Shown: positions 1-40,731 of the stretch, piece by piece
How the letters are laid out: each line of letters starts with the position of its first letter
Position numbering within the stretch: position 1 is the stretch's first letter
NCBI GenBank assembly: GCA_946187035.1
Contig: CAMHPQ010000003.1
Coordinates: forward strand, 1,886-65,885
Source of the DNA: an uncultured Clostridia bacterium
GTDB lineage: Bacteria > Bacillota > Clostridia > Oscillospirales > Oscillospiraceae
DNA: 64,000 nucleotides
Direction: 5' to 3'
Made by a program: the position numbers and the translations under genes
The notes under the pieces: generated by a model
Told to the model about the DNA's origin: nothing
Database searches by the model: none
The model's input: the letters and a program-made list of their open reading frames with translations, nothing else

Positions 1-7
1 AAAAAGT

Positions 8-2893
8 ATGGAAAAAAGAAATAAACCGTGCGGTCTCCTTGTCCAAATTGAAAAAGACGCGTTGGGGCGTCGGCACAATCAGGCCGATTATATGATAGGC
101 TATTTTGATCGTCTTTCGATCCAGCCGATCCAAACTTGGCTGCAATTTATGCCGAGCGCAATTACTCCGAACTACAGCAAAGTGGAAGCCCAACCAGTAA
201 GCGTTTATCCAATCAAGCTCCTCTTTCCGAGTCAGGAAATAACTTCGACTTTACTGGGCCTTGGTCTGGATTATGAAAGTTGGGCTTCCGGAGAATATGC
301 TTTCTTTGATCAGTATCCGTGTATTACGGTAGCACTCATTAATTTAACGGATCTTTTCAAGGGTAGCTTTCCAAAGGCTAGCTTAGACGAGCAGCTGATG
401 CGATTTGCAAAGATTGCAGTACAAGCGGATTATTACCGGGATGGTAAAAAGAACCAGTTTTCGTCTGATGATCTTAAAGATGCCCATTTTTGTATTCTGC
501 CGAGCTTAGGATATTCAGACTATTGTCTTCTGTTTGCAGAAAAAGGCTGGAATCTGGCACCGTCCATGTTAGACTATTTGCATCGTGCCTTTGACGCAGA
601 GAATCCTGTTCTTTCAACTGATTATACCATGCCGGTGTATCATGCCGGGCAGAGAGAAAAAGTGGACGAGCCCAACCCTCTGACGGAACATCGTGACAAT
701 CAGATGAGTATGTCGGTTCAGGTTAGCCTACGTCCTGGAGCATCTGTTGAGAAGCTGAAAGCTGACCTCGCAAGTATCGCAGAAGTATATCATATCACTG
801 GATCTGGCGATTGCGTTATTATCCCACATGGTACAGAGCAGTTTGGAGAGGTACTTCGCCTTCTAATGCCGAACCACAAATGTGGAATGGATACTTTGAA
901 AAATATAGCAATGGATACAGAAACACTGCTTCGTTGGCCAGCATGGGTGCCTAGAGAAGATGAGAGTCATCAGATAGACACAACTTGCAATTCGCGGGAT
1001 GAAAAAAAGCCTGGCCGTGTGCGGGAGGAGATTAATAAGCTCAGACATGTTTTAAGCGAATATGAGACTATGCTTTGTACTGCAAATCTCCAAATGCGGA
1101 ATGTGCGATCCATGTATGAGCATCTTGCATCATTGGACAACATATGCAGTGCAGATCACAATGCATCGCTTCAGTCCATTATGGCACAATGGCTGCCCGC
1201 ATACTCTGTATGCCTAGCAAAGTGCGTGGAGGAGTTGAAGTCGTCAGAAGAGAATACCCACAATGTTAAAGTGTGGGATATAGTGGAGAATTCAATTGCC
1301 GTGTTTAATGAGCAGGCAGGAAGCTTTATGGCAGATCTCTCTCGCTCCGATAATTTTTTCATGGAGAGTGAACGCTATAACCATACTTCTGTCAGCTCGG
1401 CAACCTCTCTGATTATTGCATATAATCAATGGCAGAATCAGTTTGCTGAGTCGGTTATGAAACATGCTGGAATCGGGGAAGCAAAGTATGTGTTCTTGGT
1501 CAAAAGTGGCGGTTGCGATAGGACGGATACTATTAAGCCTTTCTGGGCCTTGCAGGCGGAAGAACGAGACGGATATATCTATGAACAAGTTCCGTTCATC
1601 ACGCAGATGTCGGAGATCGGGCTGTTCGACTGTAGTGGCACCATTTTTCGAATGACACATGAGTGTATGCACTTTTGCGGAGATCGCAAACGAGGCCAGC
1701 GGTTAAACTACATGATTCAGTTTGTGGCTCGCTATTATGGTAGAATAATTGCTTGTCTGGTTTACAGAGATGGAGCCGCAAAAAGAATCATTCGTTATTT
1801 ATCAGAAAGCCATGGAATAAGCGATGAAAAATTGTTCGATGAGATAAGACATGCCGACAATGTTTGCGCAAGGGAACTTGAAGAAGATATTTCGGACTAT
1901 ATCGTTAAAAAACTGACGGGAATCTCCGAAGAATTTGACGAAATCTCCTTAATGAGCGTGAAAGTAAACGAATGGCTTTTAGAAGAATTAAGTAAAATAT
2001 TTATAGGCTACACGATCAACTGCTCTGGCAAAATAACTCCTTGTACTTTTGTGCGTCATCTTGTTAAAAAGCAACTGGAAACATTGGTAAAATTCTATGA
2101 TTTGTGCGATAAAATTATTCATGGTTGGCCAAACTTGCAACACATTCGAGCATGCAGAATAGAATCTGAAGAACGTGCATGGAAGGTAGCGAAGCTTCGC
2201 GCAGGATATAAAACGGAAAATATAGACCCATATCTCACGCGTTGGACAGCCTTACTGGTCATGAACTTAAGGGTCCAAATTCCAGCTTACAATCCCCAGT
2301 CCATATTTCAAGCTATAAATCAGGTAAGCATAGAAAACATCGTTCCCGATATCATTATTACCTGTTTCACCGAAACATACGCTGATCTTGAGGCGTGTAT
2401 GCGGCTGGATGCTTCAATTTCAGATTATCTCCTTGGTTTTTTCTTCGAGTGTCAAGATGTTGAAATGGTTCTGCACAAAACTGACGACTTAGCCTTGCGG
2501 GTTGTCTCAGTTTTGAAGGTGCAGTATGGTCATTTTTTGCAGAATGGACGATTGTCGCAACAGGCAGAAGACGAGCTAAAGAGAAGATTAAATAGTTGGA
2601 AAGCGCATGGGTTCTCTGTAAACGATGAATTGTTGGCTGCAATTGTTGGGAGAATTAATTTCTATATCCAAGAATATGAAGAATTTGGGGAGACCGTGAA
2701 ACCCTTGGAGATTTATTTGGAGATTTGTAAAGCTGATTATATGAACAACTATGAAGATCAGCGGGAAATGCAGCAATATCAGACTGCATTCCGTAACATT
2801 CGTCTTGTGGAAGATCGAACAGATGCAGATGCAGTTGGAAAAATGATTACGGCATTAATGGGGATCGGGGGAGGCACACGAGGCGATGCTTGA
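8..2893 (+). CDS. Uncharacterised 961-aa protein with an HExxH motif (H551-E-C-M-H555); upstream partner of the SIR2-like gene
   Basis: Uninterrupted 2886-nt ORF. There is no in-frame stop between the window edge and the ATG at 8, so the true start may lie upstream. HECMH is encoded at nt 1658-1672. No Walker A motif was seen. The stop overlaps the next start by 8 nt. Confidence 0.7.
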   Translation: MEKRNKPCGLLVQIEKDALGRRHNQADYMIGYFDRLSIQPIQTWLQFMPSAITPNYSKVEAQPVSVYPIKLLFPSQEITSTLLGLGLDYESWASGEYAFFDQYPCITVALINLTDLFKGSFPKASLDEQLMRFAKIAVQADYYRDGKKNQFSSDDLKDAHFCILPSLGYSDYCLLFAEKGWNLAPSMLDYLHRAFDAENPVLSTDYTMPVYHAGQREKVDEPNPLTEHRDNQMSMSVQVSLRPGASVEKLKADLASIAEVYHITGSGDCVIIPHGTEQFGEVLRLLMPNHKCGMDTLKNIAMDTETLLRWPAWVPREDESHQIDTTCNSRDEKKPGRVREEINKLRHVLSEYETMLCTANLQMRNVRSMYEHLASLDNICSADHNASLQSIMAQWLPAYSVCLAKCVEELKSSEENTHNVKVWDIVENSIAVFNEQAGSFMADLSRSDNFFMESERYNHTSVSSATSLIIAYNQWQNQFAESVMKHAGIGEAKYVFLVKSGGCDRTDTIKPFWALQAEERDGYIYEQVPFITQMSEIGLFDCSGTIFRMTHECMHFCGDRKRGQRLNYMIQFVARYYGRIIACLVYRDGAAKRIIRYLSESHGISDEKLFDEIRHADNVCARELEEDISDYIVKKLTGISEEFDEISLMSVKVNEWLLEELSKIFIGYTINCSGKITPCTFVRHLVKKQLETLVKFYDLCDKIIHGWPNLQHIRACRIESEERAWKVAKLRAGYKTENIDPYLTRWTALLVMNLRVQIPAYNPQSIFQAINQVSIENIVPDIIITCFTETYADLEACMRLDASISDYLLGFFFECQDVEMVLHKTDDLALRVVSVLKVQYGHFLQNGRLSQQAEDELKRRLNSWKAHGFSVNDELLAAIVGRINFYIQEYEEFGETVKPLEIYLEICKADYMNNYEDQREMQQYQTAFRNIRLVEDRTDADAVGKMITALMGIGGGTRGDA

Positions 2894-4067
2894 CACAAGA
2901 GATTTAGGACAAGAGGAAATCTTAAATCAATTGAAAGATACCTTTTTAGAGCAGCTCAATGCGGATTCTGCCCAAGAAAGCATTATTGAAATGGCTCGTG
3001 AGGCAGTTAAGAAAAATCACGTGACACTAGTTCTTGGAGCAGGCAGCAGTGCTTCAGCGAATATTCCTGGCTGGGAGAAGTTGCTATCTCAAATTCTGGG
3101 CTATGCAATGCAATATAATGCACTGGCGCGTCAACAGAGAAACGAACCAGAGCCCCTCCGAGAAGCGCGGCTAGAACAGGCACTGATCCTGAAAAAGTTG
3201 AAGATATCCATGGTCGGCAACAATCTGGAAGCAGGCCAGTATTTGAAACAGTTATTGGATTTCTCGGATCCAAAGTTTGCAGAGGAACGTATTAAAACGA
3301 TCATTGCCTATATCATTGGAGACGCTGAAACGCCTGAGCAGTTTTTGAGAAGAAAAGTTTCAGAGATAAACAAAGAGGAGCCTAATGAGGAATGGCTTCG
3401 CAGAGTTGCTGAAACCGAAACGCTTCCGGCAGTCGTATATTTGCTGAAAAAGACGCGCCGCGCAATTACATACGATTATCATACTCTAGTTCAGGACTAT
3501 CTGATCAACGTCTTTGGTGTAAACGAATCGGAAATCGTTACACATCCTGGGCAGTGGAATGAATACGACGAACCAGATAAAATTCAAATTTTCCATGTTC
3601 ACGGGTTTATTCCTGACAGAGGAAAAGCAGAGTCGCCGGCATATCCGCAGAAGTCAGAGAAGCTGATCTTGACGGAAGACAGCTACAAAACAATGGCGCA
3701 GATAGAGGAGTATAACTGGGCGAACAGCATTCAATCTTATTATCTCAATCGGGATAACTGCATCTTTATTGGATTTTCAGGCGATGACTATAATTTCCGG
3801 AGATTGATTTGTCAGCTCGGGCGCACTTCTAATCGACCGGAACACTATTTGTTTTTTGTGGTGGACGATTTGATTGAGAGTACGTTTCAATCAGTTAGGA
3901 CTTATAGAGAGCAGTTGGACAACGACCAAGAAGAAATCAAAAAAGACACCTTGTGTATACTGAATAACATCTTGGACAGAAAGCTTAAATATTGGAAAAG
4001 ATATAATATTATCCCGATCTGGACAACACGTAATCAGATCCCTTTGCAACTAGTAAGCCTTGTGTGA
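2886..4067 (+). CDS. SIR2-like (SIR2_2 / ThsA-DSR type) protein, putative NAD+-consuming effector
   Basis: The blocks VLGAGSSASANIPGWEKLL, AITYDYHTLV, IFHVHG, LILTEDSY and FIGFSGDDYNFRRL occur in the order expected for the SIR2_2 family. ATG 2886 overlaps the upstream stop (ATGCTTGA). Confidence 0.8.
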   Translation: MLDTRDLGQEEILNQLKDTFLEQLNADSAQESIIEMAREAVKKNHVTLVLGAGSSASANIPGWEKLLSQILGYAMQYNALARQQRNEPEPLREARLEQALILKKLKISMVGNNLEAGQYLKQLLDFSDPKFAEERIKTIIAYIIGDAETPEQFLRRKVSEINKEEPNEEWLRRVAETETLPAVVYLLKKTRRAITYDYHTLVQDYLINVFGVNESEIVTHPGQWNEYDEPDKIQIFHVHGFIPDRGKAESPAYPQKSEKLILTEDSYKTMAQIEEYNWANSIQSYYLNRDNCIFIGFSGDDYNFRRLICQLGRTSNRPEHYLFFVVDDLIESTFQSVRTYREQLDNDQEEIKKDTLCILNNILDRKLKYWKRYNIIPIWTTRNQIPLQLVSLV

Positions 4068-4434
4068 AAACCTTTTCCTGTAACTCAAAACTGATAAAGG
4101 ACTCCTTGTTTGTAATGGGATCTGATTCATGACTGAATTCCATAGCCGAAAGAGACAATCGCTCGTTCTGTGAGCGATTCACAAAAAATGGACATCCCGC
4201 ATCGAGTGAGATGTCCTATGATGAACACACTAATAAAGCTATCGCTTGATGGAACTTGCAACTTGGCTAACATTCTGCTAATACGAGCCCCAAAAATGGC
4301 ACCTCTAACTGGTATATTAGCACGATACTGCCCAGCACTCCGTAACATGTTGTTCTTTAAGAAAACGTTGATTCATGCGGGCTTGCGGGCATTTTAAGGC
4401 ATCGCGTACTACGCGGTACGAAGCGTAAGCGAAA

Positions 4435-4480
4435 ACTCCTAAGCGATAGGTCAGAGGTTCGAGTCCTCCCATGGGTGCCA
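4435..4480 (+). other. tRNA-Arg(CCU)-like 3' half remnant (anticodon loop to CCA), att-type scar, copy 1
   Basis: The sequence ACTCCTAA-GCGAT-AGGTC-AGAGG-TTCGAGT-CCTCC-CATGGGT-G-CCA fits anticodon loop, 3' anticodon stem, variable loop, T arm, 3' acceptor and CCA. No complementary 5' anticodon stem or 5' acceptor is present upstream. Confidence 0.6.
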
Positions 4481-4481
4481 T

Positions 4482-4525
4482 ACAGCGTTGAAAATCAACG
4501 ATTTTCAGCGCTGTATTCTTTTTTG
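4482..4525 (+). terminator. Rho-independent terminator following tRNA-half copy 1
   Basis: The arms ACAGCGTTGAAAAT and ATTTTCAGCGCTGT form a hairpin (one G-U pair), followed by ATTCTTTTTT. Confidence 0.7.
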
Positions 4526-4581
4526 CCTTTCATATTGATAAGAGCCGATTTTCTGAGCTGTAACTGGTTTTGAACTCCAAT

Positions 4582-4685
4582 CTGCCACCGTTTTTCTGCT
4601 AATAAAAATTAGCTGGAACAGCTTAATTATGGGTCGTTCCAGCTAATTCTATTTTTTGGAAACCAGCTAATTTTAAAGGTGGCAG
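4582..4685. repeat. Cluster of short repeated motifs (CTGCCACCG, CTGCTAAT, 3x CCAGCTAAT/ATTAGCTGG, 12-bp inverted repeat)
   Basis: CTGCCACCG 4582-4590. CTGCTAAT 4596-4603. ATTAGCTGGAAC 4608-4619 is inverted against GTTCCAGCTAAT 4636-4647. CCAGCTAAT occurs again at 4663-4671. GGTGGCAG 4678-4685 is inverted against 4582-4589. Confidence 0.6.
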
Positions 4686-4823
4686 GTCTAAATATTTTGT
4701 TTTCCAAAACGTTTTTCTTTCATGCCCAATCTCCTGAGTGACAAGCAAATACATCACAATAAGCCCGAAGAATCTGCCGAATTGACAGACCCTTCGGGTT
4801 ATCTATGAGGGATTTATTCTTTC

Positions 4824-7124
4824 TCAGGTAATCGCCTCCACACGGCAGGGCGTGTAGCGCCAGCGGGAGTTGCCGGTCATCTCGTCGATGTCGCGGTTGT
4901 CGGTGAGGAAGTTCGCATGCTTTCCGCACATTTTCCCCTGATAGTAGTAGCCGAAATGGTGCGGCATGAGGCAGTAGCCGCGAGAGGCTCTTCTGGAATA
5001 CTCCACCGGGATCTCAATCGAGCCGCGGTTCGTGGAGAGCTTGATGATCTCGCCGTCGGCAAAGCCGAATTTCGCCGCGTCGTCCGGATGCATGAGCAGC
5101 GTATAGACCTTGCGGTACTGGTTCACCCCGGGATTGCGCATGGCGTTGTCCATGCCGCCCTCAAAGCGGTATCCGGAGGACAGGATCATGTTGTTGCCGT
5201 CCTTGAGCGTCAGCGCCTCGCGCTCCTGCTCGGGAGAGATGTACTTGTTCAGGTAGTCCTCGATTTCCTGGCACCACATGTGCATCTTTTTGTCCTTGTG
5301 CGTGATGTGCTTTTCCATCATGTGATCTTCGTCCGCCATGGCGATGATCGCGCCTTCGGGATGTGTGTCGAGCAGCTCGAAGGCAGCATCCATGACACAC
5401 ATATCCTTGAACACAGGAATCTTGGAGAGAATCGGATGCTTTTTTGTATCAGGCTTCACAGTCATGATGGCACGCTTATTGAGCGTGCTCGTCATCAGCA
5501 CTGCCCAGTTCGTCGCGCGTCCCGCACTGCCCATGGCTTTGCCCAACGTGAGGATGATGATGCTGGCAGCCTGATCCATGTACTTTCCGCCGGTCTTCAT
5601 GATCCAGGCAACAACCTTGAAGTAGTATTTCAGCCGATCGCCGGTGCGCACAGCTTCCTCTGCCGCGTCGTACAGGCTCTTGGGAAGTTCGGGCAGATAG
5701 CCCATGGCCTGCGTGAGTTCTGCGAAGACCATGGAGTCCTCCTTCGCCTCACCTACCGGATTGACCACGCGCTTGCGGCTGACAAACACGACCTCCGGAT
5801 AGTTCAGTGAAAAGAGGCTCACATCGCCGTTAGCCTCATAGGCGCTCATGGTGGGGAGAATATAATCGGCGTGCCGCGTTGTCTCAGTCATAACGCAATC
5901 CATGGCCACAAAAAGATCCAGCTTATCGAGTGCCTCCTCCATACGCTGCGAATCCGGATAGCTGCGCGCAGGGTTTGTCAGCGTAGAGAAAACGACACGG
6001 AAGCGATCCTCATTGTCGCCGAGCACTTCATCCGGGAACGCGCCCTCAGGATAGGTGCTGAGCACGGGAAACCAGTTCGTCACAGTGGTGCGCATGGTTT
6101 TGGGGTCGCGCTCGTCCGAGTTTGGAAGTTCCAGCACGCGCTCGGGCATCACGCATCCGCCCTTGACCAGCGCCACGCCGCAGACGATCATCAGGATCAG
6201 GCAGAGATAGCTGTTGAGCGTTGCATGGCGTCCGAAATAGATACCGAGATCCTGATGCATACCCCACTTCTTCGTTGTGAGCACGCGGGCAAGCTCCTCG
6301 ACCTGCTTGCGTGAAAGGCCGCAGACATCCAGCGCGCCGTCGATATCGAAATTGATAAACCAGCTGCGCGTCTGCGCCCAACCGGTGGTATGCGCCGCGA
6401 TATAATCCTTGTGCTCCCAGCCCTTTTCGATGATGATCGCAATCAGGGCGCGCAGCAGCAGTGCATCCGAGCCGTTGCGGGGCCGGATGTGCATATCCGC
6501 CATGCGGGCGGTCTCCGACACGCGCGGATCGATGACGATGACCATCTTGTTGGGGTCCTGTGAAAAGCCGCGGCAGATGCGCTTGGCGTTCGGGAACTGG
6601 TGGGACACATAGGAGTTGGAGCCCCAGTAGACCACGGCCTCGTTGTTTCGGTCATCCGGCTCCGTATAGTGTCCCTGATCGCCGAAAATGCGTCCGTGAC
6701 TCCACCAGCAGCCGCCGAACTCCACGCCGATGGGGTTGAAATTAAAGGGACTGCCGACTGCGGCCATCATGCCAAGCATTGCGGCGCCTGGGGTGGAAAG
6801 CGAATACGTGCCGCCGCCGAGGGTGGCAAAACTGCGCGGACCGTATTTGTCCACAATGGCGCGAGCCTTTTCGCCAATCTCCTTGTAGGCCTGCTCCCAG
6901 CTGATACGCTCAAAGTGGTCTCCGACCTTCTTCAGCGGGTACTCCAGGCGATCACGGTTTTCTACGAAATACTTCGCACTGCGGCCCTTACGGCAGCAGT
7001 AGCCAAAGCTGCGCGGGCTCGACGGATCGGGACGGACGTTGATGATCTTGTTGTCCTCGACCTCCATCTCAAGGCCGCAGGTAACGGCGCAGAGGTTGCA
7101 CCATGTCTTTTTCCATTCGCTCAT
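4824..7124 (-). CDS. Molybdopterin (Mo/W-bisPGD) oxidoreductase catalytic subunit, formate-dehydrogenase-like
   Basis: N-terminal CNLCAVTCG 4Fe-4S motif. Contains IVIDPRVSETARMADMHIRPRNGSDALLL. The C-terminal MGD-binding beta-barrel is LLMHPDDAAKFGFADGEIIKLSTNRGSIEIPV. AAGGAGG RBS before ATG 7124. No in-frame TGA. Confidence 0.85.
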   Translation of the reverse strand: MSEWKKTWCNLCAVTCGLEMEVEDNKIINVRPDPSSPRSFGYCCRKGRSAKYFVENRDRLEYPLKKVGDHFERISWEQAYKEIGEKARAIVDKYGPRSFATLGGGTYSLSTPGAAMLGMMAAVGSPFNFNPIGVEFGGCWWSHGRIFGDQGHYTEPDDRNNEAVVYWGSNSYVSHQFPNAKRICRGFSQDPNKMVIVIDPRVSETARMADMHIRPRNGSDALLLRALIAIIIEKGWEHKDYIAAHTTGWAQTRSWFINFDIDGALDVCGLSRKQVEELARVLTTKKWGMHQDLGIYFGRHATLNSYLCLILMIVCGVALVKGGCVMPERVLELPNSDERDPKTMRTTVTNWFPVLSTYPEGAFPDEVLGDNEDRFRVVFSTLTNPARSYPDSQRMEEALDKLDLFVAMDCVMTETTRHADYILPTMSAYEANGDVSLFSLNYPEVVFVSRKRVVNPVGEAKEDSMVFAELTQAMGYLPELPKSLYDAAEEAVRTGDRLKYYFKVVAWIMKTGGKYMDQAASIIILTLGKAMGSAGRATNWAVLMTSTLNKRAIMTVKPDTKKHPILSKIPVFKDMCVMDAAFELLDTHPEGAIIAMADEDHMMEKHITHKDKKMHMWCQEIEDYLNKYISPEQEREALTLKDGNNMILSSGYRFEGGMDNAMRNPGVNQYRKVYTLLMHPDDAAKFGFADGEIIKLSTNRGSIEIPVEYSRRASRGYCLMPHHFGYYYQGKMCGKHANFLTDNRDIDEMTGNSRWRYTPCRVEAIT

Positions 7125-23844: not shown

Positions 23845-23938
23845 GACAGAGTAGGATCAGCGCGTTAAGTGCTGCGGGATGGGAAGTTGCCCGCAGACGA
23901 AGCACTTCGGTGCGCGGTGCCGGTCCGCATCCGCTGCC
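23845..23938 (+). promoter_or_regulatory. THF (tetrahydrofolate) riboswitch
   Basis: AGAGTAG..GCGCGTTAAGTG..GATGGGA..ACGAAGC..GCGCGGTG..CGCATCCGCTGC matches the conserved folT-motif blocks in order. It sits directly upstream of folT. Confidence 0.9.
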
Positions 23939-34317: not shown

Positions 34318-34683
34318 GGGGATGTACCGGTTTCGACGGGGGTGTGGAGGCAGGAATAGCGGGCGGCGGCGCCTGACCGCCATAAAACGGGCACCTTATA
34401 AATTAAAGAACAACAACGATACTGTTCTTCTCGCTGCTTAATTAGCGAGCGTTCCCTCCGGGAGGCCCACGGCCCGGATGCGGAGCGTCGATGAGTGGGG
34501 AACGTGCGTGCGGTAAGCTTTGCCCGCACCACGCATCATGAAGCTACCGGACTTGCAGGCTTGCGTGTTGGCCTGCAACGAAGGGAACAGACCGGTTTGG
34601 CCGGTCACAACAACCCGCTGCGCCCGGAGAAGTTCTTGTTAAAGCGCTTTCGGACGGGGGTTCAACTCCCCCCATCTCCACCA
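34318..34683 (+). ncRNA. ssrA: tmRNA (SsrA)
   Basis: The 5' GGGGATGTACCGGTTTCGACGGGGG and 3' GGACGGGGGTTCAACTCCCCCCATCTCCACCA form the tRNA-like domain. The internal tag frame AAG AAC AAC AAC GAT ACT GTT CTT CTC GCT GCT TAA encodes KNNNDTVLLAA. smpB lies about 1.2 kb upstream. Confidence 0.95.
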
Positions 34684-34686
34684 TGG

Positions 34687-34725
34687 AATCACGACGTAAA
34701 AGATACTACGTCGTGATTTCTTTTT
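34687..34725 (+). terminator. Terminator after ssrA
   Basis: AATCACGACGTA and TACGTCGTGATT form a perfect 12-bp stem followed by TCTTTTT. Confidence 0.85.
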
Positions 34726-34872
34726 ATGCCCGAAAAGCCCTGATTTTTCAATACTTTCTGGGTTTCGCATTTTCAAGAACAAACCGCCGCATGCCATTTC
34801 ACGCAGCGGTTTTTTGCGTTTTCAGACACACGGTTGAGCCTTTTTACTCAAAACGTTAAAATAAGGGGTAAA

Positions 34873-34892
34873 CGTTAAATTTGCACCCCCCT
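34873..34892 (+). repeat. Direct repeat, left copy
   Basis: CGTTAAATTTGCACCCCCCT, identical to 40650-40669. Confidence 0.9.
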
Positions 34893-34931
34893 ATAAAAGA
34901 ACCCTGCCGGAGCCACCACGAACCGGCAGGG
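34893..34931 (-). terminator. Terminator after the lipase/SLH gene
   Basis: CCCTGCCGG and CCGGCAGGG form a 9-bp stem, followed on the minus strand by TTCTTTTAT. Confidence 0.65.
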
Positions 34932-35052
34932 CTGGGATTTATCATCCCGAGGATTGAACAAACGTTACAGATACTATACTAGCATCTGTGACGTCCACCG
35001 CAAAGACTAAATCATACCACATTGAATGTGTCAAACTTGTTAAAAGGGCTCA

Positions 35053-37431
35053 TTATCCAAGATCTCGATACAAGAATGTGACAATCTGCGCTCTTGTGCA
35101 AGGATCGCCAGGTGCAAAAGACGTAGCAGATTTACCGGTAGTTATACCATTTTTGACCGCCCAGAGGACGGCATTGGTGTAATACTGACCGGACTTCACA
35201 TCCTGGAAGGGGTTTTCCGCCTTCACCGTAGGCTCGCCCTCCATGCGCCAGAGGAAGGTGACAGTTTGTGCACGAGTTACTGTGGTGTCGGGACCAAAGG
35301 TGGTCTTGCTGGTACCGGTGGTAATCCCTTGCTCCACTGCCCAGAGGACGGCGTTGTAGTAGAACGCGCCCTTCTTCACGTCCTTGAAAGGATTTTTGGT
35401 GCTGGCCGGCTTCGGCTCCCCAGCCGCACGCCACAGGAACGTTACCATCTGGGCCCGGGTGCAGTCCTTGCTGGGCGAGAAGTGCGTCGCGTCCGTGCCA
35501 GTGGTGACAACGGGGTCGTGGTTCACAGCCCAGAGAACGGGATCATAATAGTATACGTCCTCCTTGACGTCCTGAAATGGATTCTTCGGTGCGTTAGTCT
35601 TTTCAAACTTGGCCGTAAGTTCTGTATCTTTTTCTATAGCAAACCGAAACTCAAGGTCATTGCTGACCTTAGTTTTGCCGTCATACCAGCCGATAAAGCG
35701 GTAGCCGGCATCCGGAGTGGCAGTCACCTTCGCATATTCCCCGATGACAAACACTCCGCCGCCCTCTGTCGTTCCGCCTGATTCAGCAGATGTAGTAACA
35801 CTCCACACTTGTACTTGGTCGGCAGTCTCCTTCACGCTCGGGCTGAGTGCTTTCCCATCGGTTCCCTTCAGTGTATACTCTGCGGTCTCCAGATTGGTCT
35901 TTGATGCAGTCCCCTTCAGTTGGTCGCCGTCTTTGATCGGAATGTCCGCGTAGCTGACAACTTGAGTATACGCCCCAGTATCCATGTCATAGTCCACCGC
36001 CGTGTAGGTCATGGTTCCGTCATCCGTCGCCTGAACATCGATTGTATACTGCATATCCATTGGCAAAACAAAAACCTTTTGCCCATTTTCATCGATGAAC
36101 GATGAGATTCCGTTTTCAATTGTCTGCGGCTCATCATCTACAATCTGTGCAACCAATGCTCTGCTGCTGTCATAAACTGAAACGTCCACTGGACAATTGA
36201 CATAGATGGTACGATATCCTGTTAGGATATTGCTGAGTGTTTTTCCATCCAGAGAATCTAACCACGCAACACAGAGCTCCGGATAATGTGCATTTGCAAG
36301 ATTTACAGCAATTGTAGCAATCTCCACTCCAAGCATTGCACCACCTGTAGGATCTATAAAGGAGCCGCCTAATAGGTCAGAACCTATTAGTTTAAGCAAC
36401 GCAATGTAGTCCTCTGTTGTTTTCTCGTTATCCTTCCCAAGCAAATCCGCAACTGCCGGTGCAAATGTGCTCTCATGGTATTTGTAGTAGTTCGTTCTTC
36501 CCCCCAGATTACGTGCAAGTGAATTTACAAAATGATCAAAGAAGTAGCTCTGTCCCATCGCAAGTTCTCTTGTGAGTAATACCACATCTTTTGTCGCATT
36601 ATTTGCGCCATTATATGACAAAAGCTTTTCATACTCCTGTGCCATTTTTAATTTTAGCGGGGAATAGAGTACGGTATTCGAGGAGGAAGGTAAGTAATAT
36701 GTATTACCATAATGGGAAAAACCCATGGAGCTCATTGCAACCTTGGGAACAAGATCGATTGGATTGACAATGCAAAAAATGTTATTATAATTTGTGCCGT
36801 GAGCTTTCGGATCATTCGCTCCCATCGGGCATTCAAAGCAATATGCAAAAACATTGTTTTTCCCATACACTTCATTCAGCTTTGCTGCCGCAAGATTTGC
36901 AGTAGCAGCCCCACGGCTGTATCCCGTGATCCAAATCTTAATGTTGTCGGTCAACTGTTTTTTGTGTGTTTTAACATATTCCTCAATCCCAGTTACCGTC
37001 TTGTTTGCTGCAATCTGAAATCCAGCGTGGTTTCCGCTTGGCCCAAGGGTCACATTTCCGCCCCACTCATCGTAGTAGTTCGCGCTACGAATGGTAACTG
37101 AAACAAGAGAATAGACCTTGCCATCGCTCCCTTTTAAGTTCTTACTGCCAATATAATAACCTATGGAATTAATCTCCGGTTTAGGATACTCAGGTTTAAG
37201 ATTTGTAAACTCCAGTTTGGTCAACAATTCTTCAATATTTGCATAGTTTGTCGCAGCCGTGCTGTCTTCACGTGCCATTCCCGCCATGGACATTCGCAAC
37301 GACATTTTCGCAAGATCATGCTGATATTCGGAGGCATTTTTTTCAAACCACGTCTCATCATAGTAAGCGTAGCTCACCCTCAACAAGTGCATAATAGGAA
37401 AACCTTGTATTGAATGCACTGGAGGACCCAA
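35053..37431 (-). CDS. Lipase-like (GxSxG) protein with three C-terminal SLH-type repeats; N-terminus unresolved (possible frameshift with the upstream ORF)
   Basis: Lipase elbow ITGYSRGAATANLAAAKL. Three C-terminal repeats of the form NPFxDVK..YY..VLWAV...TTG....F.P....TRAQ.VTFLWR. No signal peptide and no RBS at the candidate ATGs. Confidence 0.7.
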   Translation of the reverse strand: MGPPVHSIQGFPIMHLLRVSYAYYDETWFEKNASEYQHDLAKMSLRMSMAGMAREDSTAATNYANIEELLTKLEFTNLKPEYPKPEINSIGYYIGSKNLKGSDGKVYSLVSVTIRSANYYDEWGGNVTLGPSGNHAGFQIAANKTVTGIEEYVKTHKKQLTDNIKIWITGYSRGAATANLAAAKLNEVYGKNNVFAYCFECPMGANDPKAHGTNYNNIFCIVNPIDLVPKVAMSSMGFSHYGNTYYLPSSSNTVLYSPLKLKMAQEYEKLLSYNGANNATKDVVLLTRELAMGQSYFFDHFVNSLARNLGGRTNYYKYHESTFAPAVADLLGKDNEKTTEDYIALLKLIGSDLLGGSFIDPTGGAMLGVEIATIAVNLANAHYPELCVAWLDSLDGKTLSNILTGYRTIYVNCPVDVSVYDSSRALVAQIVDDEPQTIENGISSFIDENGQKVFVLPMDMQYTIDVQATDDGTMTYTAVDYDMDTGAYTQVVSYADIPIKDGDQLKGTASKTNLETAEYTLKGTDGKALSPSVKETADQVQVWSVTTSAESGGTTEGGGVFVIGEYAKVTATPDAGYRFIGWYDGKTKVSNDLEFRFAIEKDTELTAKFEKTNAPKNPFQDVKEDVYYYDPVLWAVNHDPVVTTGTDATHFSPSKDCTRAQMVTFLWRAAGEPKPASTKNPFKDVKKGAFYYNAVLWAVEQGITTGTSKTTFGPDTTVTRAQTVTFLWRMEGEPTVKAENPFQDVKSGQYYTNAVLWAVKNGITTGKSATSFAPGDPCTRAQIVTFLYRDLG

Positions 37432-37948
37432 TTACACGCAATAGCCCATCTGAACAATATGATAGCATATATCGCTCGCCGCTGGAAAATACATGTACGA
37501 GTTCGTTATCTTTGATCGAATACAAATCATAGATTAACCCGAATGTTTTTCCCTCATTGTAACTATCTGCGTTGCAGCCGACAAGCAGTTCATCAGTGCC
37601 ATCGCCATCAACATCTATATATGTGTATCCACATTCTGTTGGATTAAATCTATATACATAGCTGAATCCAGCCTCTTCTAACTCACCATTTAGATCATCG
37701 TTCTCTTGATTCTCTGAAATGCTTTGCAGCACATCTTTTAACGAAGAGAGGACAGCATCATACAGTAGGTGCTCATCAAATTGTGTTTCAATCGCTGTAG
37801 GTTCTGGCATTTTGGGCTTTGACGATTCTGAAACCGCAGATTCAATTCCATCAGGCTCCAATGGCGTTTCGCTTCTGTTTGAAGAACAGGCACACATCGT
37901 AACCATCAAAATTACTAGTAACAAAGCTAGGCTTCCCCTATTTCTCAT
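37358..37948 (-). CDS. Lipoprotein-signal ORF (196 aa), possibly the displaced N-terminus of the lipase/SLH gene
   Basis: Lipobox MRNRGSLALLLVILMVTMCACSSN. Its 3' end overlaps the 5' end of ORF 35053-37431 in another frame. Confidence 0.6.
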   Translation of the reverse strand: MRNRGSLALLLVILMVTMCACSSNRSETPLEPDGIESAVSESSKPKMPEPTAIETQFDEHLLYDAVLSSLKDVLQSISENQENDDLNGELEEAGFSYVYRFNPTECGYTYIDVDGDGTDELLVGCNADSYNEGKTFGLIYDLYSIKDNELVHVFSSGERYMLSYCSDGLLRVIGSSSAFNTRFSYYALVEGELRLL

Positions 37949-37950
37949 TC

Positions 37951-38469
37951 TTATAGTTCCTCCATGTAAACCGAAAACGGAACTCGATAATCTTCCGTCC
38001 TAGCTCGTGTACGGCGTGCTTCATCCGCGTCCTTCGGCGCCTCAGGCTGTTCATCCACGAACGCGTGGAATACCTTTCCGTAGTCCATCAGACGCGCGAT
38101 CGTCTCATTTTTGAACCGCGTCACATAGCCCAACTCCTGGTCATCCGTGGTGTATACGGAGATGGCCCACTGATCGTGCTCATTATCAGGGTCACGGAAA
38201 AGATGCAGTTCCGTGCCAGGCGTGAGCGAATCTAGCAGCTCACGGCCTTCTTCGCTGTTATCATCCACATGGAAATACAGTCCAGCTATCGCTGTGGCGC
38301 ATGCGGTCAGTTCATGGCAGAACCGATGGACTTTCTGCTTGAAACTCAGATAGATCAGGCCGTCCGCGACGCAGAGTCTGGCAGAGATCTGACCATGGTT
38401 CGTTATTATCAAAATCAGTATCCGAACGTGCAAGTGCATATTCCTGTTGCGGCGCCACAGATTCAACAT
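37951..38469 (-). CDS. HIRAN domain protein (start uncertain)
   Basis: Sequence IAGLYFHV...GTELHLFRDPDNEHDQWAISVYT...ELGYVTRFKNETIARLMDYG. No start codon lies between about 38268 and 38410, so the N-terminus must overlap the divergent ORF. Confidence 0.6.
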   Translation of the reverse strand: MLNLWRRNRNMHLHVRILILIITNHGQISARLCVADGLIYLSFKQKVHRFCHELTACATAIAGLYFHVDDNSEEGRELLDSLTPGTELHLFRDPDNEHDQWAISVYTTDDQELGYVTRFKNETIARLMDYGKVFHAFVDEQPEAPKDADEARRTRARTEDYRVPFSVYMEEL

Positions 38470-40641
38470 CTACCAGTAGAACGTACGGTGCTCCCGGCCG
38501 CGAATATAACTGAGGAAGCAAAGGATATAGTCAAGCGCTGCTATGAGCCTGGCGTCTGGCAACCGGACTGCCCGATCTTTGTTGAGGCTGTGACAATCCG
38601 AACAAAAGACGAAGATGATCTGCTTTCGCTTTCCGCGGTCAATCTTTCGAACAATACAATTCGTTCAGCCTATTTTCAGGCCATTGTCCTCGACGATACC
38701 GGTGACGAGGTTGCGCGGCGTCAGTGTGTCTATCAGGGCCTGAGCATTCCCGGCGGCAACGCTCCGATCGAACAGAAGCGTCTGCCGGAAGATAAGGCCT
38801 TCCCACTCGGAACGTATCTCGCACATCGCGTTGAATTGATCTGTGAAAAGGTCGCTTTTTCCGACGATGCAGTTTGGCGCATGGATGCTAATGCAGCTCC
38901 TGTTGAGCTTCCCGCCCAGCCAGTTCTAAGTGAAAAAAACTTCCCCCGCTATCGTTATATCAATAGTCGTTTTCACACAGCTGACAAGGAAACACCTCTG
39001 CGCATGCCTCTTGAGGCGGATGGGTTCTGGATGTGTGACTGTGGTCATCCTGCAAAAAATGGAGAACCTTGTTCTTTCTGCGGCGATACGCTTCCAGCTT
39101 TACAGGAGGCATTCTCCCAGAAGACGCTGGAAACCTTACAGCTTGCTGCAGTGAAGGAGCGTGCTGCCAAGCGCGCAGCGTTCTCGCAGAAATTCTATCA
39201 GGATACGCTGGAGAAAGAAAACCAGAAGCTTGAGGAAGCAAACCACAAGATCTATCAGGAGGCACTGAGGATCGAGAAAAAGGGCACTTCTAAGAGCCTT
39301 CGTGTGGCAATTAAAGAATGGGAAAAGATACTGGACTACTCCGATGCGATGGATCATCTGGAAAGCTGCCGCAAGCGTCTCCCCGAATTGGAAGAGAAGG
39401 AAGAAGCCGATCGTATTGCCTCTGAAGCTGCTGCAAAAAAAGCTGCTGAGGAAGCAAAACAAAGAGCTGAGGAGGAAAAACGCCGCGCTGATGAGGTCGC
39501 CGCAGCTGCTAGGAAAAAACGCAACACTATCCTTGGAATCTCTTTTGCCTCCCTGGCAGTGGTGATAGCAGCAATAATTATCGTTCTAAAGATTATTATC
39601 CCAAACAGCAATTATAACAAAGCCGTCACACTCATGGAATCCAATGATCCCGGCGAAGCATTCCTCATTTTTAAGAAACTGGGCAGTTATAAGGACAGCG
39701 CAGATCGGGTTTCTCAAGCAAGGTCGGATGGCACCTTGTATCAGGCTGCAGTCAAGGATTACAATCTTGCAAAAGAGGATCCATCAAAGTGGGATCAGTG
39801 TCTTGCAGTGTGGGGAATGCTAGCGCCTCGTCATTCTATTGCTGCAGGTTTTTATCACTCAGTCGGATTAAATGTTGATGGTACAGTAGTTGCTACAGGT
39901 GACAATCAGTCTGAGCAGTGCAATACCAGTTCATGGTCTGACGTAATATCTGTTTCTGCTGGAAGTGGCCACACAGTTGGATTACGAGCTGATGGAACAG
40001 TCGTTGCAATCGGCAACAATGATCATGCGCAATGTGATGTCACCGGGTGGCAGGGCATCGTTGCAATTGCTGCGGGTGGATATCACACGGTAGGACTACG
40101 CGCCGATGGTACTGTTGTTGCAGTCGGGAATAATGATTACCAACAGTGTGACGTTTCCTTATGGAAAGACATTGTATCCATTGCAACCGGGCAAACCTTT
40201 ACAATTGGCTTGACCAGTGATGGAGAAGTCGTCTTTGCAGGAGGAGATGACATCAGCAAAGGTGGATTGAAACATAAGACTTTCACCGCCATTGCTGGAG
40301 GAGGAATGCATGTGCTTGCACTCCTTGAGGACGGAACTGTTGTCGCAGTTGGTTTAAATGATGATGGTCAGTTGAAAGTATCGTATTGGGAAGATATCAC
40401 TTACATTGCTGCTGGTGCTGCTCACTCAGTTGGTGTGCATTTGGACGGTACCGTTACTGCGACTGGCTGGAACAAAAACGGCCAGTGTGATGTTTCAGAC
40501 TGGAACAATATTGTGGAAGTCAGTGCAAGCATTGCACACACAATTGGTCTCCAATCGGATGGTACTGTTGTCGCCGTCGGCTTCAATGATGATGGCCGCT
40601 GTGATGTATCTGATTGGATAATTCAAGTACCAAACAACTGA
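38269..40641 (+). CDS. Membrane-anchored protein: zinc-ribbon-like CxxC pairs, coiled coil, one TM helix, C-terminal RCC1-type beta-propeller repeats (start uncertain)
   Basis: CxxC pairs CGACG and CDCGHPAKNGEPCSFCG. A Lys/Glu/Ala-rich coiled coil. TM helix ILGISFASLAVVIAAIIIVLKIII. At least seven repeats of the form GxxHTVGLRADGTVVAxGNNDxxQCDV. Confidence 0.75.
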   Translation: MEIQSSYRCGACGQFMAEPMDFLLETQIDQAVRDAESGRDLTMVRYYQNQYPNVQVHIPVAAPQIQHLPVERTVLPAANITEEAKDIVKRCYEPGVWQPDCPIFVEAVTIRTKDEDDLLSLSAVNLSNNTIRSAYFQAIVLDDTGDEVARRQCVYQGLSIPGGNAPIEQKRLPEDKAFPLGTYLAHRVELICEKVAFSDDAVWRMDANAAPVELPAQPVLSEKNFPRYRYINSRFHTADKETPLRMPLEADGFWMCDCGHPAKNGEPCSFCGDTLPALQEAFSQKTLETLQLAAVKERAAKRAAFSQKFYQDTLEKENQKLEEANHKIYQEALRIEKKGTSKSLRVAIKEWEKILDYSDAMDHLESCRKRLPELEEKEEADRIASEAAAKKAAEEAKQRAEEEKRRADEVAAAARKKRNTILGISFASLAVVIAAIIIVLKIIIPNSNYNKAVTLMESNDPGEAFLIFKKLGSYKDSADRVSQARSDGTLYQAAVKDYNLAKEDPSKWDQCLAVWGMLAPRHSIAAGFYHSVGLNVDGTVVATGDNQSEQCNTSSWSDVISVSAGSGHTVGLRADGTVVAIGNNDHAQCDVTGWQGIVAIAAGGYHTVGLRADGTVVAVGNNDYQQCDVSLWKDIVSIATGQTFTIGLTSDGEVVFAGGDDISKGGLKHKTFTAIAGGGMHVLALLEDGTVVAVGLNDDGQLKVSYWEDITYIAAGAAHSVGVHLDGTVTATGWNKNGQCDVSDWNNIVEVSASIAHTIGLQSDGTVVAVGFNDDGRCDVSDWIIQVPNN

Positions 40642-40649
40642 TCTGTAAT

Positions 40650-40669
40650 CGTTAAATTTGCACCCCCCT
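40650..40669 (+). repeat. Direct repeat, right copy (plus an 11-nt partial third copy at 40681-40691)
   Basis: CGTTAAATTTGCACCCCCCT. TGCACCCCCCT recurs 12 nt downstream. Confidence 0.9.
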
Positions 40670-40731
40670 TGCGCCCCATGTGCACCCCCCTGCCCGATTG
40701 TATCGCCAACGTAATGATTTGCCATTTTCGG

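Follow-up and report, generated by a model that had tools for sequence, protein, structure and literature searches.

At the left end of a 64,000-nt stretch of DNA from an uncultured Clostridia bacterium of the family Oscillospiraceae (GenBank assembly GCA_946187035.1, contig CAMHPQ010000003.1, positions 1,886 to 65,885 of the forward strand; the whole stretch is called the window below) lie two open reading frames (ORFs), ORF1 (8..2893, forward strand, 961 aa) and ORF2 (2886..4067, forward strand, 393 aa). Together they form the module described here, with ORF2, a protein of the SIR2_2 family, as the candidate NAD+ hydrolase (NADase) effector and ORF1 as the candidate sensor or regulator. The stop of the first gene and the start of the second overlap by 8 nt (junction ATGCTTGA, 2886..2893, forward strand), an arrangement that points to translational coupling, and the corresponding junctions in related loci likewise overlap or abut. 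This structure agrees with a first-pass annotation of the same DNA, made from the letters alone, which had read two same-strand ORFs with an 8-nt overlap; that annotation had also allowed for ORF1 running past the window edge, and this part proved wrong. An identical 961-aa protein is on record (P0001, 100% identity) and the homologues share the same start Met; hence, ORF1 is complete and not cut by the window edge.

The module sits on an island of foreign, AT-rich DNA: the G+C content is 42.7% over positions 1-4823 vs. 58.5% over 4824-64000, and the two hand counts behind the original remark that this DNA is AT-richer (22/60 at positions 1-60 and 36/60 at 5041-5100) are both exact. Downstream of ORF2 follow an AT-rich spacer (4068..4435) with no credible gene (its 73-75-aa ORFs have no family matches) and then, beginning 369 nt past the end of ORF2, a 45-nt 3' fragment resembling tRNA-Arg(CCU) (4436..4480, forward strand), a probable attachment (att) scar at the right end of the island. 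Such a tRNA-half scar had been suspected about 370 nt after the gene pair, and a truncation-aware covariance-model scan (5' end cut) bears this out by fitting the fragment to positions 31-71 of the Rfam tRNA model (i.e., the anticodon loop with CCU, the T arm, the acceptor and the CCA); the score of 17.8 bits (E = 0.072) does not reach the gathering score, since the tRNA is incomplete. Directly 3' of the fragment stands an intrinsic terminator (4480..4516, forward strand; a 17-bp stem plus a T run), which is, as expected, the native end of the displaced tRNA gene and the point where the chromosomal backbone resumes. ARAGORN reported no intact tRNA or transfer-messenger RNA (tmRNA) in the window. 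The fragment is single-copy there, and therefore the partner att site is out of view; the island, including the intact tRNA, must continue leftward beyond the window.

The strongest result of our analysis is the linkage between the two genes. A SIR2_2 gene directly follows the ORF1 homologue, on the same strand, in 18/18 loci with downstream DNA (12 distinct loci found by exact-protein and genome look-ups plus six from a metagenome scan), down to about 17% identity; one of the six metagenome loci is an inverted chimeric contig in which the gene order is still normal. The linked loci include those of P0190 and P0200, whose E-values with the family profile are only ~1e-48 and ~1e-42, respectively, and the neighbourhoods of the 18 loci are unrelated. 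No alternative effector was seen in the 18 loci, and no ORF1-SIR2 fusion was seen among the roughly 250 clusters of the ORF1 family (below). The two proteins also diverge in step, with the SIR2 partners being 52-32% identical where the ORF1 homologues are 50-27% identical. That is, ORF1 and its SIR2 partner are, as far as these comparisons can tell, a co-evolving module, and the possibility raised in the first-pass annotation, that ORF1 homologues show no conserved linkage to SIR2 genes, does not describe what was found.

The module probably has a third gene as well. In at least 9 of the 12 distinct loci, the large gene is preceded, at a distance of 99-196 nt, by an ORF of ~65 aa (e.g., L003:9314-9529, L005:9698-9901, L012:7654-7857 and L015:2194-2394). 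Its product, which has no family match, is basic at the N-terminus and shows conservation at two motifs, [ST]S[FYI][YHR]G and P.N…H..L. The earlier suggestion that further genes of the system may lie upstream of ORF1 thus has a probable candidate in the related loci.

ORF1 itself is, on the evidence of these searches, the founding member of a previously undescribed family. A word-indexed search returned 76 full-length relatives, and when 1.84 billion cluster representatives were searched exhaustively with a profile, 250 ORF1-family clusters (defined at 50% identity) emerged, 160 of them at E <= 1e-30; nearly all of these clusters are 900-1060 aa long and no domain fusion is visible among them. 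In one cluster, that of P0028 (1009 aa), there are also truncated forms of 124-881 aa on multiple contigs, which may reflect pseudogenisation or breaks in the assembly. ORF1 has no match in Pfam (2025), NCBIfam (2026) or PADLOC-DB 2.0.0 (2023), and 44 diverse relatives showed no recurrent PADLOC v2, Pfam or NCBIfam family; none of the 45 superfamily members matches a Pfam peptidase family. Among PDB sequences (to April 2026), nothing came below E = 0.07 with ORF1, with the family profile or with a profile of the HExxH core (below). ORF1 has no Walker A motif, in agreement with the original reading that it carries no P-loop, HerA or Argonaute hallmark.

It is conceivable that the system already has a name in current DefenseFinder models, in PADLOC releases after 2023 or in subscription-journal papers, given that the libraries that we used date from 2023-2026, that the literature covered was open access and that hundreds of candidate systems have been catalogued recently. 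We give this a slim chance, since ORF1 and its 44 relatives found no match in any library, no public source names any member of the family, and full-text searches of about 8 million open-access papers and preprints turned up nothing relevant (no description of a SIR2 gene paired with an HExxH or zincin protein). The match to an already named system that the first-pass annotation had listed as grounds for dropping its proposal was, accordingly, not seen.

The identity of ORF2 is much clearer. It matches Pfam SIR2_2 (PF13289) with 53.2 bits (cut-off 24.5, E = 4.4e-14), a domain also present in all 76 ORF2 homologues, and every motif of the SIR2_2 series read in the first pass was located: GAGSS (residue 51), IPGW (60), TYD (195), HVHG (237), LTEDSY (262) and FIGFSGDD (294). 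Among solved structures, the SIR2 domains of ThsA (7uxt, E = 9.5e-8) and KomC (8zsf, E = 4e-6) come closest to it, and these matches are limited to the NAD-binding motifs; PADLOC gives weak ThsA and LmuA matches to the SIR2 domain only (LmuA E = 7.5e-8, residues 193-324). SIR2_2 is the only Pfam domain, that is, ORF2 has no further sensor domain. One motif is unusual in this copy. At residues 195-199 (3468-3482) ORF2 reads TYDYH, with GAGSS, FHVHG, which holds the catalytic His, and GFSGDD intact, and 69/72 homologues in which the motif was found read the canonical TYN[YF]D; ORF2 shares TYDYH with the two proteins nearest to it (64% and 49% identical). Because it is common to three diverged lineages, we consider it a stable lineage-specific variant of the canonical catalytic Asn/Asp positions and not a fresh lesion.

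Two further observations concern the SIR2 proteins. In public annotation of the 67.8-kb contig, ORF2 is called from an internal Met as a 285-aa protein (P0223) in which the GAGSS NAD-binding motif is lost, a miscall that probably stems from the overlap with ORF1. Many SIR2 partners (those in L005, L011, L012 and L013) have a Cys-rich N-terminal extension of ~45 residues (C..C…C.C), possibly a zinc ribbon, which is absent from ORF2 and its closest relatives.

Compared with known systems, the module is, by its gene content and motifs, of the SIR2-effector type and a member of none of the named systems considered, and by analogy it probably works like SIR2-effector abortive-infection systems. DSR2 and DSR1 resemble it in having a SIR2 NADase effector plus ~700-1000 residues of non-enzymatic or sensor sequence, and NAD+-depletion abortive infection would be expected in both cases. 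However, DSR systems are single polypeptides with an N-terminal SIR2 and no HExxH, whereas here a separate 393-aa SIR2 protein is encoded downstream of a protein with an invariant HExxH site; the two genes are separate in every linked locus and PADLOC gives no DSR match. A DSR2-like C-terminal domain was rejected for ORF1 as there was no fold match to the solved DSR2 structures. SIR2-HerA (Nezha) and Lamassu with a SIR2-type LmuA are also spread over two or more genes, with the SIR2 effector under the control of a partner protein, but their partners are P-loop ATPases (HerA and the SMC-like LmuB, respectively) and ORF1 has no Walker A motif. ORF1 was likewise rejected as a HerA (no HerA/ATPase family match and no fold match in addition to the missing Walker A), as an SMC or LmuB protein (no such match for ORF1 or its relatives) and as a STAND protein of the Avs5 kind (no NTPase motif or family match in ORF1 or ORF2).

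Thoeris and Kongming (KomABC) contribute the SIR2 domains closest to ORF2, those of ThsA and KomC, and differ in that ORF2 has no SLOG or Macro sensor domain and the module no TIR, KomA- or KomB-like gene; no TIR gene is present at positions 1-4823 or in the related loci. In SPARSA and in the long-B prokaryotic Argonaute-SIR2 systems (BPAS), a large partner is encoded beside the SIR2 effector as it is here (for BPAS, PMC10620215), and ORF1 was rejected as an Argonaute, with no Piwi, MID, PAZ or APAZ match and no Argonaute in a Foldseek search of the PDB. Hence the first-pass conclusion that the partner fits no known SIR2 architecture (Thoeris, DSR1/DSR2, SIR2-HerA, SPARSA or Avs5) stands. What is new is the undescribed partner family with its probable third gene; the SIR2-effector kind is already known, and the module is not categorically new.

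The fold of ORF1 offers few clues to its function. An AlphaFold2 model (74 sequences) has a mean predicted local distance difference test score (pLDDT) of 86.5 and a predicted template modelling score (pTM) of 0.88, and a separate model of residues 488-961 has a pLDDT of 88. The Foldseek search on such a model, which had been proposed in the first pass, returned nothing at E < 0.1: against 350,542 PDB chains the best E-value was 0.17 for the whole model and 0.28 for residues 488-961, with no Argonaute, HerA, DSR2 or SMC fold match. In the whole model, long helices span residues 339-487, followed by a five-strand sheet (493-535), the helix that carries the HExxH motif (542-557) and an all-helical part to residue 951. 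Residues 1-310 (8..937, forward strand) are predicted, from DSSP of the model, to be alpha/beta with ferredoxin-like repeats similar to Lrp/AsnC RAM domains, whose fold is beta-alpha-beta-beta-alpha-beta with a G-x-x-D hairpin. This region has beta-hairpins with conserved G-x-x-D turns (G31/D34, G168/D171 and G265/D268), and the hairpin motifs kept are G31..D34, G168-Y-S-D171, S203-T-D-Y206 and G265..D268. Foldseek gives local matches to the RAM domains 2djw, 2e1c, 1ri7 and 2cyy with probabilities of 0.98-1.0 over ~88 columns (E ~0.4-1.3). At the sequence level, AsnC_trans_reg (PF01037) aligns to residues 237-271 with E = 0.057, below the cut-off, and to 2/45 family members at E = 0.13, and internal-repeat comparison by hhalign gave no support for the repeats (probability <= 6%). 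The RAM-like matches are thus the sole credible local fold matches of the ORF1 model, with marginal sequence support.

ORF1 also carries a candidate metal site. ORF1 holds a single HExxH motif (HECMH, residues 551-555, 1658..1672, forward strand), mid-protein as had been noted, with ~0.05 expected by chance from composition. It stands on helix 542-557 and is followed by G558 and R560/R562/R565, giving the extended signature HExxHxxGxRxRxxR. The motif is invariant in 74 ORF1 homologues and kept in 44/45 superfamily members, with one family member carrying a degenerate HKFLY in its place; the Cys of HECMH is not conserved and is therefore not a metal ligand. Down to 16% identity, G31, D34, G168, D171, E536, H551, G558, R565, E789, D793 and Y903 are invariant, and E552, H555, G501/G502, R560 and R562 are at least 90% conserved. 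A metzincin was ruled out since position 11 after HExxHxxG is neither His nor Asp. A second invariant cluster, F787-x-E789-x-x-A792-D793-x-x-x-C797-M, lies on helix 775-800, and within it E789-T-Y-A-D793 (2372..2386, forward strand) is a candidate glutamate helix (ExxA/ExxxD) with E789 as the proposed third metal ligand. E789-x-x-A792 fits the glutamate-helix motif of gluzincins, (E,H)xx(A,F,T,S,G), a definition taken from the paper on the structure of ArdC (PMC7213743).

The minimal gluzincins ArdC, IrrE and Spartan, zincin-like metallopeptidase domains from conflict and repair systems, provide the nearest comparison for this site, as their HExxHxxG is also followed by basic residues (GxRxRxxR in ORF1, GHKSRLDR in ArdC). 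In ArdC, an edge strand (I.MP) likewise precedes the HExxH, and a later helix with F-x-E-x-x-A-[DE]-x-x-x-C-M is in register: the ORF1 cluster aligns with F227-E-E229-L-I-A-E...C-M of ArdC, where E229 is a crystallographic metal ligand (PMC7213743). ArdC differs in that ORF1 is three times larger and has no ArdC N-terminal domain, the part that binds single-stranded DNA. In quantitative terms, the HExxH-core profile has ArdC as its best PDB sequence match (E = 0.22), and a homology search with the same profile found nothing outside the ORF1 family. When hhalign compared ORF1 with an alignment of the ArdC family (eight plasmid records), the core reached 49% probability (pairwise E = 1.7e-4) and the full-length profile 14%; for segment 760-830 alone, the glutamate-helix register was the best local alignment with alignment A1 (12 columns, E = 0.15, not significant) and was not recovered with the wider alignment A5. 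The conservation pattern is read most economically as a gluzincin-like metal site into which a large helical segment has been inserted.

The ORF1 family is rare. A pattern-limited scan found it in 6 of ~185,000 species representatives, all of them Clostridia and including Flintibacter muris DSM 110149. Mobile-element genes are common around it: three large serine recombinases adjoin the module in L001-L004 and two in L019, DDE transposases adjoin it in L005 and L011, and L012 carries a relaxase, MmeI/Eco57I-type and type IIG restriction-modification genes and an SLFN/AlbA_2-HATPase protein. In the F. muris locus (L016), a serine recombinase lies downstream of the module and, immediately upstream (L016:3762-6984), there is a PADLOC candidate PDC-M62A/B (a Septu-like ATPase plus partner; E = 2.5e-70 and 1.7e-60). 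Recombinases or transposases adjoin the module in five loci besides L012 and L016, a sample too small for an enrichment score, and the G+C content of the module ranges from 29% to 55% across hosts. The module is horizontally mobile and self-contained. Given these contexts of recombinases, transposases and varied G+C, the tRNA linkage is a feature of this copy and not of the family; the first-pass picture of a tRNA-linked island is, therefore, right for the DNA at hand and does not extend to the other copies, which sit with serine recombinases or transposases.

The L012 element deserves separate mention. On this mobilisable element, beside the module and the restriction-modification genes, a 1014-aa bacterial protein (L012:3048-6092, forward strand) matches Pfam RdRP (PF05183, eukaryotic-type RNA-dependent RNA polymerase) with E = 1.7e-13, and a gene for a 287-aa protein (L012:6082-6945, forward strand) overlaps its 3' end; neither gene of this pair has a PADLOC match.

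Such neighbourhoods bear on two alternative readings of the module. It might be an addiction or stabilisation (toxin-antitoxin-like) module, or an inter-element weapon of integrative elements, with the SIR2 protein as the toxin, ORF1 and/or the small protein as the antidote, and no dedicated anti-phage role. The consistent presence of serine recombinases, transposases and a relaxase, the tight coupling of genes around a toxic effector, with a small gene upstream, and the truncated ORF1 variants in one cluster all fit this alternative. Nevertheless, an antitoxin of 960 aa that conserves an enzyme-like site would be out of the ordinary, the PDC-M62 and restriction-modification neighbours point to defence islands, and toxin-antitoxin and abortive-infection roles are not mutually exclusive; overall, we assign this alternative, including the toxin and antidote roles that it implies, a low probability. 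Alternatively, the pair might be housekeeping or regulatory, with a RAM-domain protein that senses an amino acid or metabolite and controls a sirtuin-type deacylase or ADP-ribosyltransferase, as the RAM-like folds in the N-terminal region of ORF1 and the TYDYH of ORF2 (which could mean chemistry other than NAD+ hydrolysis) might indicate. This is very improbable in view of the rare and patchy distribution of the family, the foreign base composition of this copy and the mobile-element contexts, and of the defence association of the SIR2_2 clade, with ThsA and KomC, not deacetylases, as the closest solved relatives of ORF2.

We favor instead the proposal that the pair (in most genomes, the triad) is an anti-phage or anti-mobile-element system of the abortive-infection type, a statement that, taken as a whole, we consider evenly poised between right and wrong; that the module has some role in defence or conflict with SIR2 as the effector is the likelier part of it and, in our judgement, reasonably probable. 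NADase activity, protease activity, the sensed cue and the defence phenotype are all inferred. Under this proposal, ORF2 would be a SIR2 effector that destroys NAD+ once activated, and ORF1 would be its dedicated sensor or regulator, with an N-terminal RAM-like array that probably recognises a ligand or protein or mediates oligomerisation, and a long helical part as a scaffold. The HExxH helix and the later helix with ExxA/ExxxD would form a metal site of the gluzincin type, split by a ~230-residue helical insertion. In the uninfected cell, ORF1, possibly together with the small protein, would keep SIR2 inactive; an infection cue sensed by ORF1, through the RAM-like array or the helical scaffold, would then switch on the peptidase site, which would cut an inhibitory element (the small SS[FY]xG protein being the obvious candidate), and the freed SIR2 would deplete NAD+ and so halt phage replication. 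The conserved HExxH/ExxA site suggests metal-dependent hydrolysis in SIR2 control, and a sensor domain coupled to a regulator-cleaving zincin has precedents in IrrE and ImmA. That the peptidase step is real and required is tentative, and on balance we lean against it. The fully specified version, a three-gene system with a protease-licensed SIR2 NADase in which a RAM-like sensor is joined to a split gluzincin site that cleaves the small SS[FY]xG protein or an inhibitory segment, is unlikely to be right in every part. To our knowledge, a protease-gated sirtuin effector would be the first of its kind, and it would be built on a fold without a solved relative.

Several observations weigh against this proposal and especially against its peptidase step. 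Neither the whole model nor the C-terminal half matched a zincin or other fold in Foldseek searches of the PDB, and in a viral predicted-structure library a 'Zincin protease' ranked second for ORF1 with E = 0.17 and a probability of 0.28 only. The candidate glutamate-helix motif lies ~235 residues from the HExxH, in contrast to known gluzincins, which have it on a contiguous helix; splicing out the putative ~230-residue insertion did not raise the hhalign score above that of three control splices, and the similarity to ArdC falls below significance. Because of this sub-significant similarity and the lack of advantage over control splices, we have not filed ORF1 in any known peptidase family. 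In average-product-corrected mutual information (MI-APC; 179 sequences), residues 537-572 are joined to 786-816 by 9 of the top 40 long-range pairs within the C-terminal half (~0.6 expected), which suggests that the HExxH and glutamate-helix segments pack together, and this signal is confounded by phylogeny (156 effective sequences). On the effector side, the TYDYH copy of ORF2 may have altered or reduced catalysis: the chemistry of this copy is uncertain since the variant alters the Asn reported, from ThsA and DSR2 mutagenesis, to be needed for NADase activity. The small ORF of this copy would fall just beyond the left edge of the window, out of view. Finally, searches of 50,697 phage and 72,556 plasmid records and a pattern-limited scan of IMG/VR viral contigs yielded no member of the family, and recognisable defence genes adjoin only 2 of ~7 loci with long flanks. 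The 'metalloprotease-like' label of the first-pass annotation gains support from motifs, i.e., from the invariant HExxH plus ExxA/ExxxD, and is not confirmed by the fold search, which showed no zincin.

The main rival to the proposed protease-licensed system takes up these points directly. ORF1 might be a non-catalytic sensor or scaffold, similar to the C-terminal domain of DSR2, with binding of a phage protein activating SIR2 allosterically or by oligomerisation, and the HExxH/ExxxD residues might be a structural metal site or a relic. Indeed, the known SIR2 systems are switched on by binding or assembly, not cleavage (DSR2 is activated by the phage tail tube protein, SIR2-HerA by assembly and ThsA by gcADPR), and both the lack of a detectable zincin fold and the degenerate HKFLY of one family member would be in line with a site that does no chemistry. 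Inactive zincin-like domains also occur in other conflict systems (PMC8195603), and ArdC performs its known function independently of its protease activity (PMC7213743), which is dispensable there. On the other hand, the catalytic Glu (E552) is at least 90% conserved, and the invariance of E536, R565, Y903, E789 and D793 to 16% identity goes beyond the needs of a structural metal. We regard both elements of this rival, the non-catalytic sensor and the structural or relic nature of the site, as rather unlikely, with a chance that is minor but real.

Elsewhere in the window, a tmRNA gene not reported by ARAGORN is present at 34318-34683 (forward strand; Rfam 147.5 bits) and is followed by a second low-G+C stretch (42-52%) at 34700-40700, which may be a second, tmRNA-linked island. 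It carries genes for an SLH/lipase surface protein (35053-37431, reverse strand), a HIRAN-domain protein (37951-38469, reverse strand; weak PADLOC match to PDC-M03B, 8.6e-11) and an RCC1-repeat protein (38269-40641, forward strand). A tetrahydrofolate (THF) riboswitch (81.7 bits) lies at 23845-23938 on the forward strand.

In conclusion, our analysis directly establishes the gene structure of the module, its obligate linkage and co-divergence, the conservation of its motifs, its mobile and defence-type neighbourhoods and its absence from known families. Of the original idea of a new sensor plus SIR2 effector pair, the pair and its novelty (i.e., the linkage and the lack of a named match) have held up, and defence function remains an inference; we consider the module a credible new anti-phage system, as a candidate put forward from computation. 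SIR2 NADases are among the immune effectors most widely reused by bacteria, and the triggers known for them are a small-molecule signal, the binding of a phage protein, the assembly of an ATPase and a guide-directed Argonaute. Each of these triggers revealed a distinct sensing principle, and ORF1 resembles none of their partners. If its metal site is active, the module would link proteolytic signalling to NAD+ depletion, which, as far as we know, has not been described for sirtuin effectors. Even without a protease, the strict two-gene (probably three-gene) linkage offers a compact system of ~4.5 kb to test, from a family found mostly in gut Clostridia, a group whose defence systems have seen little experimental work.

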